Source: Planctomycetota bacterium (lineage in GTDB: Bacteria > Planctomycetota > Planctomycetia > Pirellulales > Lacipirellulaceae). Taken from it: DNA of 64,000 bases. The position numbers were made by a program. The stretch spans positions 15,874-79,873 of the forward strand of contig JBCCXZ010000009.1 of the NCBI GenBank assembly GCA_039190745.1, given 5' to 3'. This document shows positions 42,001 to 48,000 of the stretch, one piece after another; the first letter of the stretch is position 1, and every line of letters starts with the position of its first letter.

Positions 42001-45000
42001 CACATCGACTGGCCGCCTTACTCCAGCGACAAGCACCTCCGGCTCATGCTCAAGCGGTACGCTGCGACCTCGATCGGGCTGATCATCCGCAAGGCCGAAA
42101 GCGCGGCACTCGCTAAGAGCGCTTAACCGGCGGGCCGGCTCCCCTCACCCCAACGCAGGGCGTCAGCCTGCGGTGAGGCTCAGTCTCGGAGCACCAGCAC
42201 CGGGCAGTGCGCTAGCCGCACGACCCGCTCGGCCACCGAACCGATCATCAGCCGCGCCAGCCCGCTCCGCCCGTGCGAGGGCAGGACGATAAGGTCGGCG
42301 TCGAGCTTCGAAGCCAGCTCGGTGATCTCCTCCGCCGGCGCCCCGAACGCGACCTCGAAATTCACTCCTTGGTATTGGGGGTCGCTGAACTGCCGAGCCA
42401 GCATCTCTTTCAGATCGTTGCTGCGGGCTTGGTCGCTTATCACCTGCCAGGCCAGCGCGGGGTCGCCGGCGCCAAAGCTCTCCGCCGGCGGCGCGACGTG
42501 GACGATCGTGAGGTCTTCGGCACGCTGCAGCATGCTGCGAGCCATGTCTACTCCGCGGTGCGCCTGGTCGGAGAAGTCCGTCGGGGCGATTACGCGGTTT
42601 GCCATAAACTTCATCATCGTGGGACCCCCTTTCGCTGCCGGCCCTCTTCCTTGGGCTGAAGCGCTTCAACGATGGCACGAACCAAGTCGAGACTGGTCAC
42701 CACCCCGACCGGGCGGCTCGCGTCGTCGACCACAATCAGCCGGTGCATCCGCGAGAGAGACATCCGCCTAGCAGCGGAAAGCAAGTCCGCGTCCGAGGCG
42801 ATCGACTGCACCGCCGACGACATGTGCGTCTTCACGAGGTCGTGGCCAAGGCGGCCGACCGAGAACACGCCGGAATCGTCCGCCGAGAGCACGTAGTCGC
42901 CCACGCGGGTGCTGCCGTCGATCTCCTCCGCCTTGGCGTGCACGAAGTCGGACGACGTCAGCACGCCGATGCACTTGCCCAACTCATCCACCACGGGGCA
43001 CCCCGTCACGCGGTTCTCCGTGAGCACGTCGGCCGCTTCCGCCATGGTTTGGCTCAGACCAACGCACACCGCCTCACGCGACATCAGCTCCGAGACGTTC
43101 CGCCCCGCTAGGGCTAACAGCTTGCCTTCCATCGCTTATCCCTCCACCTCGGGTGCGCTCGTCACGGGGGGGCTGCTAAGCCCGCTCGCCGAGACCACTA
43201 GCACCCGGTTCTCGATGCCCTCGATGCCTGGCAACTCCCGTAGGCACGTCTGCAGCACCTGCTTGAGGTAGAACGAGGGCAGCCTGCCCAACACTTCGAG
43301 CTTGCCCCCCCGGCAACGGATCGAGAGTTCCGACATCCGCGAGCGGAAGTAGTCGTGCTGTGCGACCCGCTTCGTCGCGGCCGCTTCTAGGAAGAGGTCC
43401 TGCGCCGGAGCGCTAGGGCCATCGTGCGCGTTCGCGCCGGGGTCGACCCGGAACCTCAACCCGAATTCTTTGCTTCCCGATCCCATCTCGCCCTCCTCAC
43501 GACAAGCGGCCGCTTCGAGAGTCCCACTCCAGCGGAAGCACATGCAAAAAACAGACCGAACACGCAGGGCCCACGCCGCTCGGCTAGTGCCCGAGAACGC
43601 CGGAAGCCAGTGGCCCCGAGCGCGCCACTCCGCACACCGGCGCGCTTTTCCGCACAGCGACGCATTCCGTTCCGGCCCAGGGCCGGGCATCATAGAGAGA
43701 CAAGGCGTCTGGCGAGGGAAGGTATGGGCAGCGAGAACTACGAGAAATTCGCCGAGCTGCAGCGGTACGTCGATTGGTCGGACGACGACGCGGCCAACAT
43801 CCGCGGCGTTCGAGCAGTCTTGCTGCCGCACGTCGGCGCTATGGTCGATGACTTCTACGCTCGCATCGACCGCCACCCCCGCGCCGCCGCGGTCCTCACC
43901 GAGGGCGGGCCCCAGGTCGCACGGCTCAAGAAGACCCTGCACGCCTGGATCGAGCGGCTCCTGAGCGGGCCCTACGACGCGGCCTACGCCGAAGCCCGTT
44001 ATCAAGCCGGCCGGCGGCACGTGCTGGTTGGCCTTGATCAGGTCTACACCAACGCCGCGATGGCGCGGCTGCGGAGCGGGTTTGTCGGTTACCTGGGCGA
44101 CGCCCTCGGCGATAACCCAGAGGCCTTCACCCGAGCCGTCGTCTCGCTCAACAAACTGCTCGACCTCGACCTGGCGTTGATCGAAGACGCCTACCAGACC
44201 GAGTTCCTCGCCCGCCAGCAGAGCCTCGGCCGTGAGAACCAGCACCTCCGCGGCGCGCTCGCCGCTCGCGGCGACCACGGCGGCATGGTCGGATCGTGCC
44301 CCAAGATGCAGGAGCTCTACCGCCTCATCGAGCGGGTCGCGCCGACCGACGAACCGATCCTGCTCGAAGGCGAGAGCGGCACCGGCAAAGAGCTCGTCGC
44401 CGCGGAGCTCCACCGCAGGAGCCGGCTGGCCAACAAACCGATGGTTGTGGTCAATTGCGCCGCGCTGCCCGAGTCGCTGCTCGAGTCCGAGCTGTTCGGC
44501 CACGAGAAGGGCTCGTTCACCAGCGCCGACGCCGCGAAACGCGGCCTCTTCGAGGCCGCCGACGGCGGGACGCTCTTCATCGACGAGATCGGCGAACTCG
44601 CCCCCGAGCTCCAAACCAAACTCCTCCGCGTGCTGGAGAACGGCGCCTTCCGACGGGTCGGCGGGCTCAAGGAGCAGCGTGTGCAGGTGCGGCTCATTGT
44701 CGCCACCAATCGCGACCTCGCCGCCGACGTCGCCTCCGGACGCTTCCGCGAAGACCTCTACTACCGCATCAACGTCCTCACGCTCAAGCTGCCGCCCCTC
44801 CGCGAGCGGCTCGACGACCTCCGCCTCCTCGTCGAGCACTTCGCCGGCGACGAGTGGCTCTGGGGGGACGGTTTCCTCCACACGGTCCAGAACTACGGCT
44901 GGCCCGGCAACGTCCGGCAGCTCCGCAACGCCATCGAACGCGCAAAGATCCTGGCCGAGGAAGACGAGCTCCTCGTCGAGAACCTCCCGCCCGAGATCGT

Positions 45001-48000
45001 GCGGCAAAGCCAACGCCCCCGCCGGGGCTCTCTCGACGGCTCGGAGATGGACGAGGTCAACCGCCGGCATGTGATCGAAACCTACAAGCGCCACAACGGC
45101 AACAAGGCCAAGACCGCCCGCGAGCTGGGCATCAACCGCCGCTCGCTCTACCGCATGCTCGAGCGCTACGGCATCGGGCAAAGCGGGGGCGTCGGGCAAA
45201 GCGGCGGCGTCGACCAAGACGGGAACTGATTCAGCCCGCGTCGCCGGCGGCCGTTTCTACCACCGGCACTTCTGGCATTTCTTCCGCCCAGCCGCCCACG
45301 ACGCACTCGACCCGCACCTTCAAATCGGGGCTGGCCATCGTGTCTCGGATGAGCCGCTTGATCTCTTCCGCCGAGGAGCGGGGCAGGGGGTGCGGGGAGG
45401 TCAGGATCACCGCCACGTCTACCGGGTCCACCTGACGGGCGGTGCCGGAACGCCCCATGAACAGCACGTCGACCCCCGGCTGCGTGGCGACGTGGTCCAG
45501 CAGCGCCTGGCGGAGATCGTCGGTCACCGCGAACGCGATCGGAGCCGTCTTGCCCTCGCGCACCTGCTGCATGAACGAGGTCACCAGGGGGATGGATACC
45601 CCCACGACGCACAGCCCAAGTCCGATCACAACGTTCCGGACCCAGAAGCGTCGGGGCGTGCCCTGCGTAAAAAGCCACAGTCCCATGCCGCTGAAAGTGG
45701 CCGCCGCCGCGAGGATGATCGCCAGCACATTGGCAACCAGCAAGAACAGGGCGCCCAGGCTCGCGTGCCACCGGGCGTAGGACAGGCAGATGCCCACCGA
45801 GCAGAGCGGCGGGACCAACGCCGTGGCGATCGCCACGCCCGCGATCGTGCCCGCCACGCTCGGCCGCGCCAGCGCGTACGCCGCCGCAACGCCGGAGAAC
45901 AACGCCACCAGCAGGTCGAGGATGTTCGGCTCGGTCCGCGCAAAGACCTCCGGAGTGAGATCCGTGCCGGGGGTGATCCAGCCGATCGCTGCGCTGATCG
46001 CCAACGCGGTGAAGAAGCCCCGGCCGATCGCCCGGAAGCAGCTGTACGCTAGTTTGCGGTTGCCCTGGTTGAGCGCCAGCCCCATGCCGATCATCGGCGT
46101 CATCAACGGCGCCAAAAGCATCGAGCCGATCACCACCGCCGGCGAGTTCTGCAGCAGCCCCAGCGTGGCGATCGCCGAAGCCAGCCCGAGCATCATGATA
46201 AAGTCGCTGTTCCACCGCGAGCCAATCTGGAGCTGCTCGAACAGGTTGGCGTAGTCGGTCGGGTTGAGCCGCGGCAGCAGCCCCCGCATCCGCAAGCCCG
46301 CGCGGCCGACCTCCAAGCGTGCCCCGCGTCGGAACACTCCAATCGTTGCTTTGGGAGCCGCCTCGCACATCCGCTCGACGCCCGCCTCCAGGTCGGCGCC
46401 CACCAGCAGCAGGTCGCAGCCTTCGGACTCGCCGCAGATGGCCGCCACGCGGTCGTCGCCCAGCACCGTCTTGATCGCCAGGTGACTGGATTCTTCCAGG
46501 CTCAGTTCCCGCAGCATGCCGCGCAGGGCCCGATCACCGACCTCGATGGCCCGCTCGCCGATGTCCGCCTCGACGCCCACGGCGGTCACCGAGCCCCCGG
46601 TGCTGCGCGCCGTCGCCGCGGCGACCTCCAACGCTTCGGTGTCGTGCGAGCCCTCCGACGTGCCCACCACCAACGAACCGACCTTCAGCGTCCGCGGCCC
46701 GTCGCCGTACAACACCACCGAACTGCACGAGCACTTCGCCGCGAGCTGCTTCGGAACCGGCGCACGCTTGCCGTTCTTGCCCTCGGGCGACGGGCAGCCG
46801 GGACCAACCACCAACAGCTCGGGCGATTCGACGCGCAGCCGCGACAGCGTCGCCGAGAGCGCGTCCGGCTCAGGCACCCGCCGGACGCTCACGTCGTGCC
46901 GGGCGATGCGCCCCCGCCGGGCGTGCTTGGTCCGCACCACCGACTCAACCGCCGCGTCGATCGCACGCCGCGTGCCGTCGGCGATGTCCTCCGGGCTGCC
47001 GTCGACCGCGATGATCATCGACTCGGAGGTCACCGACTCCGGCACGTAGTAAACGATCAGGTCGGTCCCCTGCGCCGCGGCAAATCGGCCCGCCCACACC
47101 ACCACGCGGCGGGCTTCTTCGGCGGCCGAGACAAAGGCGGCGACAGACACGTGCGGGCCTGCGGGAAGGAGCATGATGGAAAGAGACTTTGACGAGACTC
47201 ATCTATCCTAGTCGTTGCCCGCGGGGGTCGAAACAAAATCCGCTTGGTAATCGCGGCCAGCAACGACCGTGCGGCTATTGGGGGGCAATCCCTAACGGTT
47301 ACAACGAAGTCGGCGCGGCCGAAACCCGCCGAGCTAAGCGCCCGAAGCCAGCCGGTCGCGTGCCTCGATGAGCTGGGCCGCGATGCTCACCGCAATCTCG
47401 CCGGGGTGGTTCGACCCCAACGGCAGCCCGACCGGGCAGTGGAACGTGAGCCGCTCCGGGGCAACCCCCGCTTCGACCAATTCCTTGCATAGCACCGCCG
47501 CCTTCGCTTTGCTGCCGATCACGCCCACGAAAGGGAACGCCGCATCGGCCCGGTAGATTTGCTCCAGCACCGGCAGGTCGGAGCGGTGCCCGCGGGTCAT
47601 GCACAGCACGAACGCATCGTCCGGCAGAGACGCGACCGCCGCGGGCGGGTCGTCGGTCTGCACCGCCCGCACGCCGGGCGGCAACCGGCCGAGCCACTCC
47701 CCCCGAGGATCGACGCACGTCACCCGGCAGGGAAGCGTCACCAGCAACCGAGCCAGCGCCTGCGTCACATGCCCCGCGCCGAACACAACAACGTTCCACT
47801 CCGCAACGCCGACGCTCTCGAAGAACAGTTTCACCCGCCCGCCGCACGTCATGCCGACGTCGGCCTTCAGGTTCCAGTCGCGGAACCGCTGGGCGACACC
47901 CTCGGCGAGCATCCGCCGGGCTTCGTCGATCGCCTTCGCCTCGACGCGCCCGCCGCCGACCGTGCCCTCATCCAGGCCGTCGGCCGTGACGAGCATCTTC

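Follow-up and report, generated by a model that had tools for sequence, protein, structure and literature searches.

What can a protein do that carries a globin sensor at one end and a sigma-54 activator at the other, and which genes would it control? The gene that raises this question, at 43724..45229 (+) of the window (the 64,000-nucleotide stretch of DNA analysed here), encodes a protein of 501 residues, P0001. We found no description of a fused globin-sigma-54 activator in the literature, and the interest of the case is that one protein may stand in for a multi-protein oxygen-sensing relay. Our answer is that P0001 is probably a haem-based sensor of a gas or of redox state, one-component in design, and itself one of the enhancer-binding proteins of bacteria (bEBPs), acting on the adjoining operon. 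The gene's host is a marine planctomycete.

A protoglobin joined to a sigma-54 activator

The start codon, ATG at 43724, is preceded by the Shine-Dalgarno-like GAGGGAAGG and agrees with the N-termini of 32 aligned relatives; the genome search returned the same gene (G000:C9:59597-61057, equivalent to 43724-45184 of the window). In Pfam, the translated protein matches Protoglobin at residues 7-160 (5.1e-35, profile positions 3-155 of 158), Sigma54_activat at 189-354 (1.3e-68), AAA_lid_14 at 360-432 (4.2e-15) and the Fis-type HTH_8 at 443-482 (1.8e-9), and the search gave no Response_reg match, which reproduces the receiver-less domain order of a preliminary description of this locus. No NCBIfam equivalog reached its cut-off, the best being AtoC, which scores 319.6 bits where 714 are required. 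Since 18 further genomes of this planctomycete's family carry full-length orthologues, an assembly artefact is excluded as the source of the fused architecture.

The predicted haem sensor

The sensor domain (43742..44203, +) finds its closest globin match in AfGcHK (PDB 5OHE), with residues 9-159 of both proteins aligning without a gap (E 2.3e-28), such that Tyr45, Leu68 and His99 carry the same numbers in each. In AfGcHK, His99 is described as the proximal haem ligand and Tyr45 as the residue that recognises O2 (PMC8697598). The proximal histidine of P0001, which had been left unchecked in the preliminary description, is therefore present as His99, and it is invariant, with Leu68 and Trp75, among 33 fused relatives. 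Tyr45, on the distal side, is kept in 32 of the 33, and each of the four residues occurs in 17/17 copies extracted from genomes. The most likely state of the N-terminal globin would be one in which His99 holds a haem and Tyr45 covers the ligand pocket, and we infer haem binding from this residue-by-residue correspondence. As to the ligand of the predicted sensor, NO and CO are possible.

Alternatively, the globin might bind no haem and sense no gas; it would then help the protein to dimerise, act as a scaffold or respond to another signal, like the RsbR-type non-haem globins. Non-haem globin families do occur in signalling proteins according to one account (PMC8717448), and in the globin tree a long branch carries the window protein and its nearest relative, P0002, which a path length of about 1.2 separates from the next fused sequences. 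However, the conservation of these four residues and the ungapped alignment to a proven haem O2 sensor both argue against this possibility, which we consider unlikely.

A dimer model and the helical linker

A helical linker (residues 161-188; 44204..44287, +) extends the last globin helix to the AAA+ domain and carries an RENQxLR motif. The AF2 monomer has an unbroken helix from 132 to 181, although pLDDT falls below 50 at residues 174-186, so that the end of the linker is unsure. The motif aligns with the linker between receiver and AAA+ domain in the regulator of a related two-gene system (the split form, below). A dimer model of residues 1-200 with haem scored 0.90 against 0.02 for the best control, passing a mark that 20 of 30 proteins with same-chain pairs in their solved structures also reach, as does 1 of 23 with single chains, but AfGcHK globin dimers have already been solved, and for the globin part the pass may merely echo those structures. 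At least 82% of contacts agreed between runs, with a partner pLDDT of at least 88, and the contacts follow helices G and H and then continue in heptad-like steps from 161/162 through 182/183. On this model the globin probably dimerises via its G and H helices, and its final helix would extend into a parallel coiled coil that links it without a break to the AAA+ domain. The coiled coil is probably an inheritance from an NtrC-type response regulator.

The output module and its altered L1 loop

The AAA+ domain and lid (44288..45019, +) have ZraR, NifA and NtrC1 as their closest solved structures, and both the Walker A (GESGTGKE) and Walker B (DE) motifs are intact. The helix-turn-helix (45050..45169, +) is strongly conserved across the family, and rpoN is encoded in the genome. 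The L1 loop, by contrast with the canonical GAFTGA, reads GSFTSA, altering two positions and retaining the Phe and the Thr. Canonical GAFTGA is found in 16 of 17 copies extracted from family genomes, the window copy being the exception, and GSFTSA is common only to P0001 and P0002, two proteins that share 86% identity in residues 1-185 and 89% when compared in full. Neither GSFTSA nor GAFTSA turned up in the literature searched.

It could be, then, that the window copy is crippled for contact with sigma-54 and is either a mere DNA-binding repressor or on its way to loss, with the wider family maybe still active. The two substitutions in a loop that nearly all family copies keep, the silence of the literature on this variant and the weak -24 element of the window would all fit. 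Set against them are the retained Phe and Thr and a survey of Desulfovibrio vulgaris, which judged the natural variants GSFTGA (position 2) and GAFTDA/GAFTHA (position 5) compatible with activation (PMC4641369). Moreover, the loop is preserved in P0002, and the Walker motifs, promoter, both enhancer boxes and operon are all kept at the window locus, which makes a crippled activator improbable.

A divergent operon with a candidate promoter and enhancer

Divergent from the fused gene, on the minus strand, lie three genes: the first (43136..43486) for a diverged single-BON protein of 116 residues, the second (42614..43132) for a CBS-pair protein of 172 residues (Pfam CBS 3.2e-24), and the third (42180..42617), overlapping the CBS stop, for a universal stress protein of 145 residues (Pfam Usp 7.5e-33). 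The window BON protein has no Pfam match and is assigned by alignment to orthologues, two of which pass the Pfam BON cut-off (2.6e-9 and 2e-7). All three genes stand divergent beside the fused gene in 4/4 loci with long flanks; in these loci there is no conserved third neighbour besides BON-CBS-Usp, and the genes downstream of the fused gene are not conserved. Where flanks are shorter (about 1.5 kb), BON adjoins the fused gene in 18/19 family genomes and CBS in 16/19. Viewed from the BON gene the linkage is one-way, with a globin regulator upstream in 10 of 54 metagenome BON loci, or 10 of 39 once those with an upstream flank shorter than 500 nt are set aside (a hand count), and unrelated neighbours in the others.

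A candidate sigma-54 promoter, cGGtct-N5-TTGCA (43543..43558, -; -24 GG at 43557-43556, -12 GC at 43545-43544), lies 58 nt ahead of the BON start codon and is the single GG-N8-TTGCW of the window's intergenic region, on the operon strand (shuffle P 0.066). The five regions examined have one such site each, again on the operon strand (shuffle P 0.043-0.071 each), and no sigma-70-like site was found in 41900-45500. The preliminary description had named no target promoter, a strict TGGCAY scan having returned none nearby; that scan missed the site adjoining the gene because the window -24 reads cGGtct, the weakest -24 element of the family. Among globin-linked metagenome loci, 8/10 fit the strict pattern and the remaining two read TGGCAC-N5-TTGC. 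Further upstream, two tandem boxes, TGTGCGGAAAAGCGCGCC (43656-43639) and TGTGCGGAGTGGCGCGCT (43636-43619), make up a candidate enhancer (43619..43656, -). Spaced 20 nt apart, they precede the -24 GG by 77 and 97 nt, and each is an imperfect GTGC-N6-GCGC dyad, with GCGC in place of GCAC. Across the family, nGG-N8-TTGCn is present in 19/19 loci, and in 14/19 the -24 is preceded at 67-80 nt by a GTGC-N6-GC[ACG]C dyad (0.44 expected from shuffles; not found at that distance in the other 5), counts that do not represent independent events, the loci being mutually related. The promoter and two full boxes are combined at one site only in the genome, the window locus.

Comparison of sequences establishes the architecture, the conservation of the haem ligands and ATPase motifs, the presence of rpoN, the conserved promoter-enhancer-operon arrangement and the split relatives. 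The fused protein most likely switches on the adjoining BON-CBS-Usp stress operon. There is a slim chance that another sigma-54 activator serves these genes while the fused protein acts at a distance, the neighbourhood being coincidental or co-inherited. The genome does hold many activator candidates (22 at first look), and BON homologues are also found in other contexts. However, the divergent layout, the promoter and the dyad persist across six genera whose intergenic sequences have otherwise diverged, no such conservation extends to the fused gene's downstream side, and Usp and CBS also occur beside the split form.

Distribution and origin

The fusion is present in 19/120 genomes of the host family (the window genome and 18 others), correcting the earlier report of no fused form in sampled relatives, and in 0/380 genomes sampled elsewhere in the class, from families other than this one. 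There is also a second lineage with the fusion, distant from the first. A search with residues 1-185 gave 33 fused clusters among the best 120, which bears out the direction, but not the number, of an earlier count of 65 among the best 120 for residues 1-230. In the globin tree, one branch is enough to separate the globins of all 34 fused proteins from 87 kinase globins (SH-aLRT 93, 1 change), suggesting a single origin of the fused globins.

The globin kinase and NtrC-type regulator pairs previously attributed to relatives do occur in the same family, as a split form in genus g487 (G862 and G873) with Protoglobin-PAS-kinase directly followed by REC-AAA+-HTH, and with Usp and CBS close by, encoded on the other strand. 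The split-form regulator shares 60% identity with residues 152-484 of P0001, RENQxL linker included. The split-form globin is only 46% identical to that of P0001, compared with 50-58% for short metagenomic globin kinases, so the split form is not necessarily the direct globin donor.

The window genome itself has one protoglobin gene above the cut-off and no globin kinase was found in it; given also the missing receiver and the lack of a conserved third gene in the long loci, we think it very improbable that the fused protein needs a partner (an anti-activator, a kinase elsewhere or a hetero-oligomer with another bEBP), even though Nmp, as studied, is a pathway of several components (PMC6211767). 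The core of the preliminary description, a globin that directly governs a sigma-54 activator as a short-cut of the kinase and NtrC-type pair, agrees with all computational tests run (haem ligands, rpoN, adjoining target, split form).

A proposed switch

The dimeric coiled-coil linker of the model suggests negative control of ring assembly as in NtrC1 and DctD, where the receiver dimer and linker reportedly exert it. In one haem state, the globin dimer would keep the AAA+ domains apart in the manner of those receiver dimers. Altered haem ligation or oxidation would then loosen this hold and allow the AAA+ domains to assemble as an active ring, which would form on the GTGC-N6-GCAC-like enhancer some 70-100 bp upstream of the -24/-12 promoter in the divergent intergenic region. 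With ATP, the ring would open the sigma-54 promoter complex and turn on BON-CBS-Usp. We infer both the oligomer switch and the direction in which the protein responds. As hypoxia induces CBS and USP genes as targets of the related Nmp pathway, loss of O2 would be a somewhat likelier trigger of activation than O2 itself.

Comparison with known systems

The closest studied system is the multi-protein NmpRSTU hypoxia pathway of Myxococcus xanthus, in which a protoglobin-type haem sensor likewise ultimately governs an NtrC-like sigma-54 activator (PMC6211767, PMC11841059). NmpR is described as acting at sigma-54 promoters to activate a hypoxia-induced CBS gene along with one for a USP (PMC11841059), and these targets stand behind paired dyad enhancers, as the operon here would with its candidate boxes. 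However, Nmp comprises four proteins and two phosphotransfer steps, whereas P0001 is one polypeptide without kinase or receiver. The enhancers also differ, being GTGC-N6-GCAC-like here with the NmpR core GCGCA-N5-TGCGC in 0/19 loci, and a BON gene heads the operon, unlike the Nmp targets. The AAA+ and HTH domains of P0001 are set beside NmpR by description, not by sequence. AfGcHK of Anaeromyxobacter, a homologue of the Nmp kinase, offers the closest globin and the same haem residues (PMC8697598); it is active with O2 bound, and Nmp output is hypoxia-active only via an extra inverting kinase.

NtrC1 and DctD (PDB 1NY5, 4L4U) align with P0001 from residue 166, through the helix ahead of the AAA+ domain and on through that domain, but have a phosphorylatable receiver in place of the haem globin. 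The split form has the same building blocks, a like Usp/CBS neighbourhood and the closely similar activator, yet consists of two genes, its kinase having an extra PAS domain and its activator a receiver. NorR differs in sensing through a GAF domain, which binds non-haem iron, whereas P0001 has no GAF domain by Pfam. It nonetheless resembles the protein proposed here in being a sigma-54 activator of one component that responds to a gas, with an N-terminal sensor that keeps the AAA+ domain repressed (PMC7175178, PMC2941729). Gas-sensing bEBPs are therefore not new as a class, contrary to the preliminary description, NorR being an NO-sensing bEBP known already (PMC7175178). The regulatory domains tabulated in that review are RR/PRD, PAS/V4R/ACT, GAF or none, with no globin in the table, and against this list it is the haem-globin sensor of the fused protein that stands as new.

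A sensor globin joined to a sigma-54 activator

We lean towards reading P0001, the 501-aa translation of an open reading frame at 43724-45229 on the plus strand, as a self-contained haem-globin switch for sigma-54-dependent transcription. The protein would have been born when the receiver of an NtrC-type regulator gave way to the sensor globin of a globin-coupled kinase, the regulator's coiled-coil linker being kept, and an oxygen relay of two to four proteins would in this manner have become one protein. The same reading holds that at least two such events took place (the second represented by the metagenomic proteins P0144 and P0336), that the cis elements form a minimal set (an enhancer dyad and a -24/-12 promoter, about 115 bp), and that the whole amounts to a gas-responsive (O2/NO/CO) transcription switch that is portable and made of one protein, and adds a new class of regulatory domain to those of bacterial enhancer-binding proteins (bEBPs).

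The domain order given in the preliminary description, with no receiver domain, is reproduced by Pfam: Protoglobin (PF11563) at residues 7-160 (5.1e-35; 121.2 bits against a sensor-globin family cut-off of 25), the sigma-54 AAA+ domain Sigma54_activat (PF00158) at residues 189-354 (1.3e-68; 230.3 bits), AAA_lid_14 at residues 360-432 (4.2e-15) and the Fis-type HTH_8 at residues 443-482 (1.8e-9). The start and end that it gave agree with window coordinates, a match on contig C9 of the window's own genome (G000:C9:59597-61057) corresponding to window 43724-45184. Pfam returned no Response_reg match for P0001, the receiver that characterises NtrC-type response regulators and that is present in the closest non-fused relatives, and no GAF domain, the sensor of NorR-type proteins, was among its matches. 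No NCBIfam equivalog reached its cut-off (the NorR model scored 309.6 bits against 476). The solved structures matching the C-terminal two thirds are those of ZraR, NifA, NtrC1, FleQ and PspF, and those matching the N-terminus are the globin of AfGcHK, the globin-coupled histidine kinase of Anaeromyxobacter (5OHE), followed by a Geobacter sensor globin, Tlr1989 and HemAT. The databases give fused and related proteins no specific names, only 'AAA domain-containing protein', 'transcriptional regulator with PAS, ATPase and Fis domain' or 'DNA-binding NtrC family response regulator'. The overall reading put forward earlier is upheld, and we add to it a conserved candidate target promoter, an enhancer, an operon, the fusion junction and a split-form relative.

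Residues 9-159 of P0001 align without a gap on residues 9-159 of AfGcHK (E 2.3e-28), so that Tyr45, Leu68 and His99 of P0001 fall on the same-numbered AfGcHK residues. Judged by this alignment, His99 would be the proximal histidine (F8) and Tyr45 the distal tyrosine (B10) of the haem pocket; for AfGcHK itself, PMC8697598 names His99 as the proximal haem ligand and Tyr45 as the residue that recognises O2. The proximal histidine, which had been left unchecked, proves to be conserved: an alignment of 33 fused proteins shows no variation at His99, Leu68 or Trp75 and has Tyr45 in 32 of them and Phe in one, and each of the four residues is present in 17/17 genome copies (those extracted by script from the 19 fusion-bearing family copies).

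The Walker A motif GESGTGKE and the Walker B DE are likewise invariant in both sets. In P0001 and P0002, its nearest relative, the sigma-54 contact loop reads GSFTSA, which retains Phe and Thr; most relatives, including 16 of the 17 extracted family copies, have the canonical form GAFTGA. According to a Desulfovibrio survey (PMC4641369), the single variants GSFTGA (position 2) and GAFTDA or GAFTHA (position 5) are compatible with activation; neither GSFTSA nor GAFTSA was found as a string in the literature searched. The genome encodes its own sigma-54 (a 518-aa open frame on contig C1 scores 213.4 bits for Sigma54_DBD), and its one protoglobin gene above the cut-off is the fused gene itself.

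A divergent stress operon with a candidate promoter and enhancer

Upstream of the P0001 gene, and divergent from it, lie three tightly packed minus-strand genes, which encode a 116-aa protein (43486-43136), a CBS pair protein (43132-42614; Pfam CBS) and a universal stress protein (42617-42180; Pfam Usp). The window copy of the 116-aa protein has no Pfam match; two of its orthologues lie above the Pfam BON cut-off, and a core, GRLPSFYLKQVLQT...IENRV, is common to all. The 237-bp region between the P0001 and BON genes holds on the operon (minus) strand a candidate sigma-54 promoter, cGGtct-N5-TTGCA, at 43558-43543, 58 nt before the BON start codon, and upstream of it on the same strand two tandem candidate enhancer boxes 20 nt apart, TGTGCGGAAAAGCGCGCC at 43656-43639 and TGTGCGGAGTGGCGCGCT at 43636-43619. 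As far as sequence can tell, a cognate -24/-12 promoter with an upstream enhancer is thereby present for P0001, both as candidate sites. A strict TGGCAY scan had reported no site nearby, and such a scan is blind to the -24 element cGGtct of this promoter. Nowhere else in the genome does the promoter pattern occur together with two full boxes. As a weak negative, a promoter scan of 41900-45500 found no sigma-70-like sites. A look for expression data listed no RNA run with this stretch; the one run that contains it is a DNA run from a marine metagenome, which may be its source.

Elsewhere in the genome, on contig C90 (about 8270-8520, minus strand; extracted as L130:1822-2782), two CBS-domain genes in tandem (156 and 175 aa) stand behind a promoter-like GGCCCGTGGTTTGCT that has TGTGCGG boxes at 98 nt and at 106 nt on its upstream side. 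We set this site aside as a second target and keep it as a lead: it has no dyad match, and the orthologue in G732, the sole clear one in a search of five fusion-bearing genomes, has no such promoter directly upstream.

Conservation of the regulator and its candidate target

We sampled for the fusion at three depths. Across the phylum, a fused-family profile was run on 400 other genomes with three candidates scored per genome, and none of the best 150 matches, above 1050 weaker ones, reached the globin part. Within the class, full-length fusions were present in 4 of 20 other genomes of the host family, Lacipirellulaceae, and in none of 380 genomes from other families. A scan of 120 family genomes (E <= 1e-175) then gave 22 matches, three of them AAA+/HTH only; the fused form, earlier reported as absent from sampled relatives, is therefore found at full length in 19/120 family genomes. 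These fall in 6 of 24 genera, one of which has the fusion in 12 of its 27 genomes, and the other genome of the window's own genus has no fusion. A scan of genome contigs seeded by generic AAA+ motifs (E[ST]ELFGHE, GESGTGKEL) yielded at least 80 loci that were all partial and uninformative on fusion, since the matches begin at query residue 103 or later and cover the AAA+/HTH part in nearly all.

The operon travels with the regulator. BON, CBS and Usp genes are syntenic with the fused gene in 4/4 loci examined with 20-kb flanks, and with flanks of about 1.5 kb the BON gene adjoins in 18/19 fusion loci and a CBS gene is seen in 16/19. The fusion-bearing genome G807 (L188) is the only one in which no BON gene was found; there the CBS gene comes directly after the sigma-54 promoter.

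The genes downstream of P0001 (DUF389/Usp-like, XdhC and molybdenum hydroxylase subunits) are syntenic in 0/4 of the same 20-kb loci. In the window they comprise a convergent gene at 45231-47174 (minus strand), whose product is a membrane protein of 647 aa that has DUF389 and weakly matches Usp at its N-terminus (0/4 related loci syntenic), and then at 47334-52241 (minus strand) an XdhC-like maturation factor followed by molybdenum hydroxylase subunits, a large one (837 aa) and a fused 2Fe-2S/FAD one (550 aa). Next come plus-strand genes for an M20 peptidase and a cupin. The XdhC and molybdenum hydroxylase genes form a xanthine-dehydrogenase-family cluster that is, by synteny, unrelated to P0001.

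The pattern nGG-N8-TTGCn (GG-N10-GC) occurs on the operon strand in 19/19 intergenic regions, and the sequence around it has largely diverged between loci. Five regions tested by shuffling each hold exactly one GG-N8-TTGCW on the operon strand and none on the opposite strand, at a chance of 0.043-0.071 each; because the fusion loci are related, the product of these per-region chances is no probability. By hand count, 16/19 loci have a (T/C)GTGCG box at a distance of 68-112 nt upstream from the promoter. A GTGC-N6-GC[ACG]C dyad was found in 14/19 loci, against 0.44 expected, at 67-80 nt upstream from the -24 GG, and is perfect (GTGC-N6-GCAC) in five of the 19. The enhancer motif of NmpR, the activator of the Myxococcus xanthus oxygen-sensing pathway NmpRSTU, is given as GCGCA-N5-TGCGC in PMC11841059; as the enhancer of P0001 it is dismissed, its core GCA-N5-TGC being found in 0/19 upstream regions.

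The association can also be viewed starting from the operon. Metagenomes scanned with the BON family gave 55 loci, in 54 of which tblastn recovered the BON gene, and a globin regulator stands divergently upstream in 10 of these 54 (one of the ten duplicates a genome locus and two are near-identical). Eight of the ten carry the strict promoter pattern, and the others have TGGCAC-N5-TTGCG and TGGCAC-N5-TTGCC. At the other BON loci the upstream neighbours are unrelated, among them cellulase, porin, CheB and sulfatase genes. The regulator thus always comes with the operon and the BON family also occurs elsewhere, so the link between regulator and operon is one-way, and with 10/54 the BON gene is ruled out as a specific marker of the globin regulator.

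Origin of the fusion

The three AAA+/HTH-only matches of the family scan all come from one genus of the same family, g487, which has a split form of the system. At the two loci fetched (L203 of G862, 7396-10531; L204 of G873, 7134-10214) a Protoglobin-PAS-HisKA-HATPase kinase of 566-575 aa is directly followed by a REC-Sigma54_activat-HTH_8 regulator, with a gap of 15 bp in L204, and Usp and CBS genes lie nearby on the opposite strand. The g487 regulator is 60% identical to residues 152-484 of P0001, linker (RENQxL...) included, which places the fusion junction at about residues 160-167. On this alignment, the last helix of the globin meets the regulator's own REC-to-AAA+ linker. The g487 kinase is not assured as the globin donor, because its globin is 46% identical to that of P0001, below the 50-58% of short metagenomic globin kinases. 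In L203 we also observed a CGGCGCCTAAATTGCG element about 100 nt before the divergent Usp gene, and TGTGCG-type boxes another 73-118 nt upstream of that element.

Four family genomes that lack the fusion were examined for their closest AAA+/HTH module (56-58% identity), and in every case it sits in a REC-bearing NtrC-type regulator, with PAS kinases nearby in two and Usp genes within 6 kb in three. One locus (L125 of G692, 8526-15384) has a REC-type activator with a 56% identical AAA+/HTH part, a true BON gene, a PAS-PAS kinase and an adjoining Usp-CBS-Usp group, and resembles a PAS-kinase version of this stress module. Downstream of the closest REC-type activators in L124 and L126 (G648 and G450) come a gene of the VIT1 family (iron/manganese transporter-like) and several Usp genes, and in L124 flavodoxin-like and dihydroorotate-dehydrogenase-like genes lie ahead of the activator.

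We built a globin tree of 121 domains, comprising P0001 and its best 120 globin-region matches with none dropped. The 34 fused domains lie on one side of a single branch (SH-aLRT 93), giving one change between fused and non-fused states against about 30 in shuffles; on this tree, the P0001-type fusions share a single origin. An exhaustive profile search of 1.84 billion representatives found the globin part covered by three of the best 150 matches: P0047, a truncated P0129 and the distant P0144. The last is a Protoglobin-Sigma54-HTH_8 protein, 39% identical to P0001, with a longer linker and with Tyr and His kept; it (510 aa) and P0336 (520 aa), both from metagenomes, share the Protoglobin-sigma54-HTH order with a linker of about 45 residues. 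The globin of P0144 shares 55-65% identity with another set of kinase globins, some of them named Gemmataceae, and two clusters among its best 120 are fused. Since its nearest relatives are different kinase globins, P0144 and P0336 probably represent a second, independent fusion.

Predicted structure and proposed mechanism

The AF2 model of P0001 (mean pLDDT 78.8) has a continuous helix at residues 132-181 that runs from the globin into the linker, and is unsure at 174-186. When residues 1-200 were modelled as a dimer, in two copies and with haem, the score was 0.90 against 0.02 for the best control; the mark set for this score was reached by 20 of 30 proteins solved as a pair of identical chains and by 1 of 23 solved as single chains. 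Contact agreement between runs was at least 82% and partner pLDDT at least 88. The contacts involve the G and H helices and then 161/162, 164/165, 168/169, 171/172, 175/176, 178/179 and 182/183, a spacing that in the model is that of a parallel coiled coil. AfGcHK globin dimers are among the solved structures, so the globin part of this result may merely reproduce them; we know of no template for the linker part. The model supports a dimer in which the linker would position two AAA+ domains.

We propose that the globin dimer and coiled coil would keep the AAA+ domains assembly-incompetent, the same hold on AAA+ assembly that the receiver domains of NtrC1 and DctD exert. A change at the haem would be transmitted along the helix and free the AAA+ domains, and P0001, assembling on the enhancer, would then remodel the closed sigma-54 complex of the BON-CBS-Usp promoter. 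As to the direction of the signal, both USPs and a CBS protein figure in the mycobacterial hypoxia regulon. NmpR mediates the induction by hypoxia of the M. xanthus CBS gene mxan_4236, and a USP also belongs to its regulon (PMC11841059). On the strength of these hypoxia targets we rate activation on loss of O2 as slightly the likelier, with activation by O2 close behind. AfGcHK is described in PMC8697598 as active in the Fe(III), Fe(II)-O2 and Fe(II)-CO forms and inactive as five-coordinate Fe(II).

P0001 would offer a system for asking how a change in haem ligation passes through a coiled coil to an AAA+ assembly switch, and a simple one: a single protein, enhancer and promoter, for which the split form found in this bacterial family is a natural control. 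The fusion documents the collapse of a two-component system into a one-component system with the junction visible at residue level, and is a candidate single-gene gas-responsive transcription switch. For ecology, it points to the BON-CBS-Usp module as the oxygen/redox stress response of a group of marine and environmental planctomycetes.

Comparison with known systems

The closest studied system is NmpRSTU/AfGcHK, which P0001 resembles in the type of sensor, the type of activator and the kind of targets: CBS-domain and USP genes are sigma-54 targets of Nmp (PMC11841059), and CBS and Usp genes are likewise in the operon divergent from P0001. NmpRSTU, however, consists of four proteins, with a separate protoglobin kinase, a hybrid kinase and receiver proteins, and its enhancer sequence differs; in the genome of P0001 the fused gene is the one protoglobin gene above the cut-off.

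The preliminary description spoke of a new class of gas-sensing bEBPs. Gas sensing by a one-component bEBP is not new, since NorR already does this, but NorR senses through a GAF domain and P0001 would do so through a globin; what stands is the sensor, as globin is absent from the regulatory domains in Table 1 of a 2020 bEBP review (RR/PRD, PAS/V4R/ACT, GAF or none; PMC7175178). We found no description of a globin-sigma-54 fusion in the full-text literature searched, though subscription-journal reviews may mention one. A 2020 globin review counts 'gene regulatory domains' as an output, known or predicted, and gives no particulars. The outputs of globin-coupled sensors listed in PMC7475203 are chemotaxis, kinase, cyclase, phosphodiesterase and anti-sigma-antagonist. 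A globin joined to a sigma-54 AAA+ motor would enlarge both lists, that of globin-coupled sensor outputs and that of bEBP sensors.
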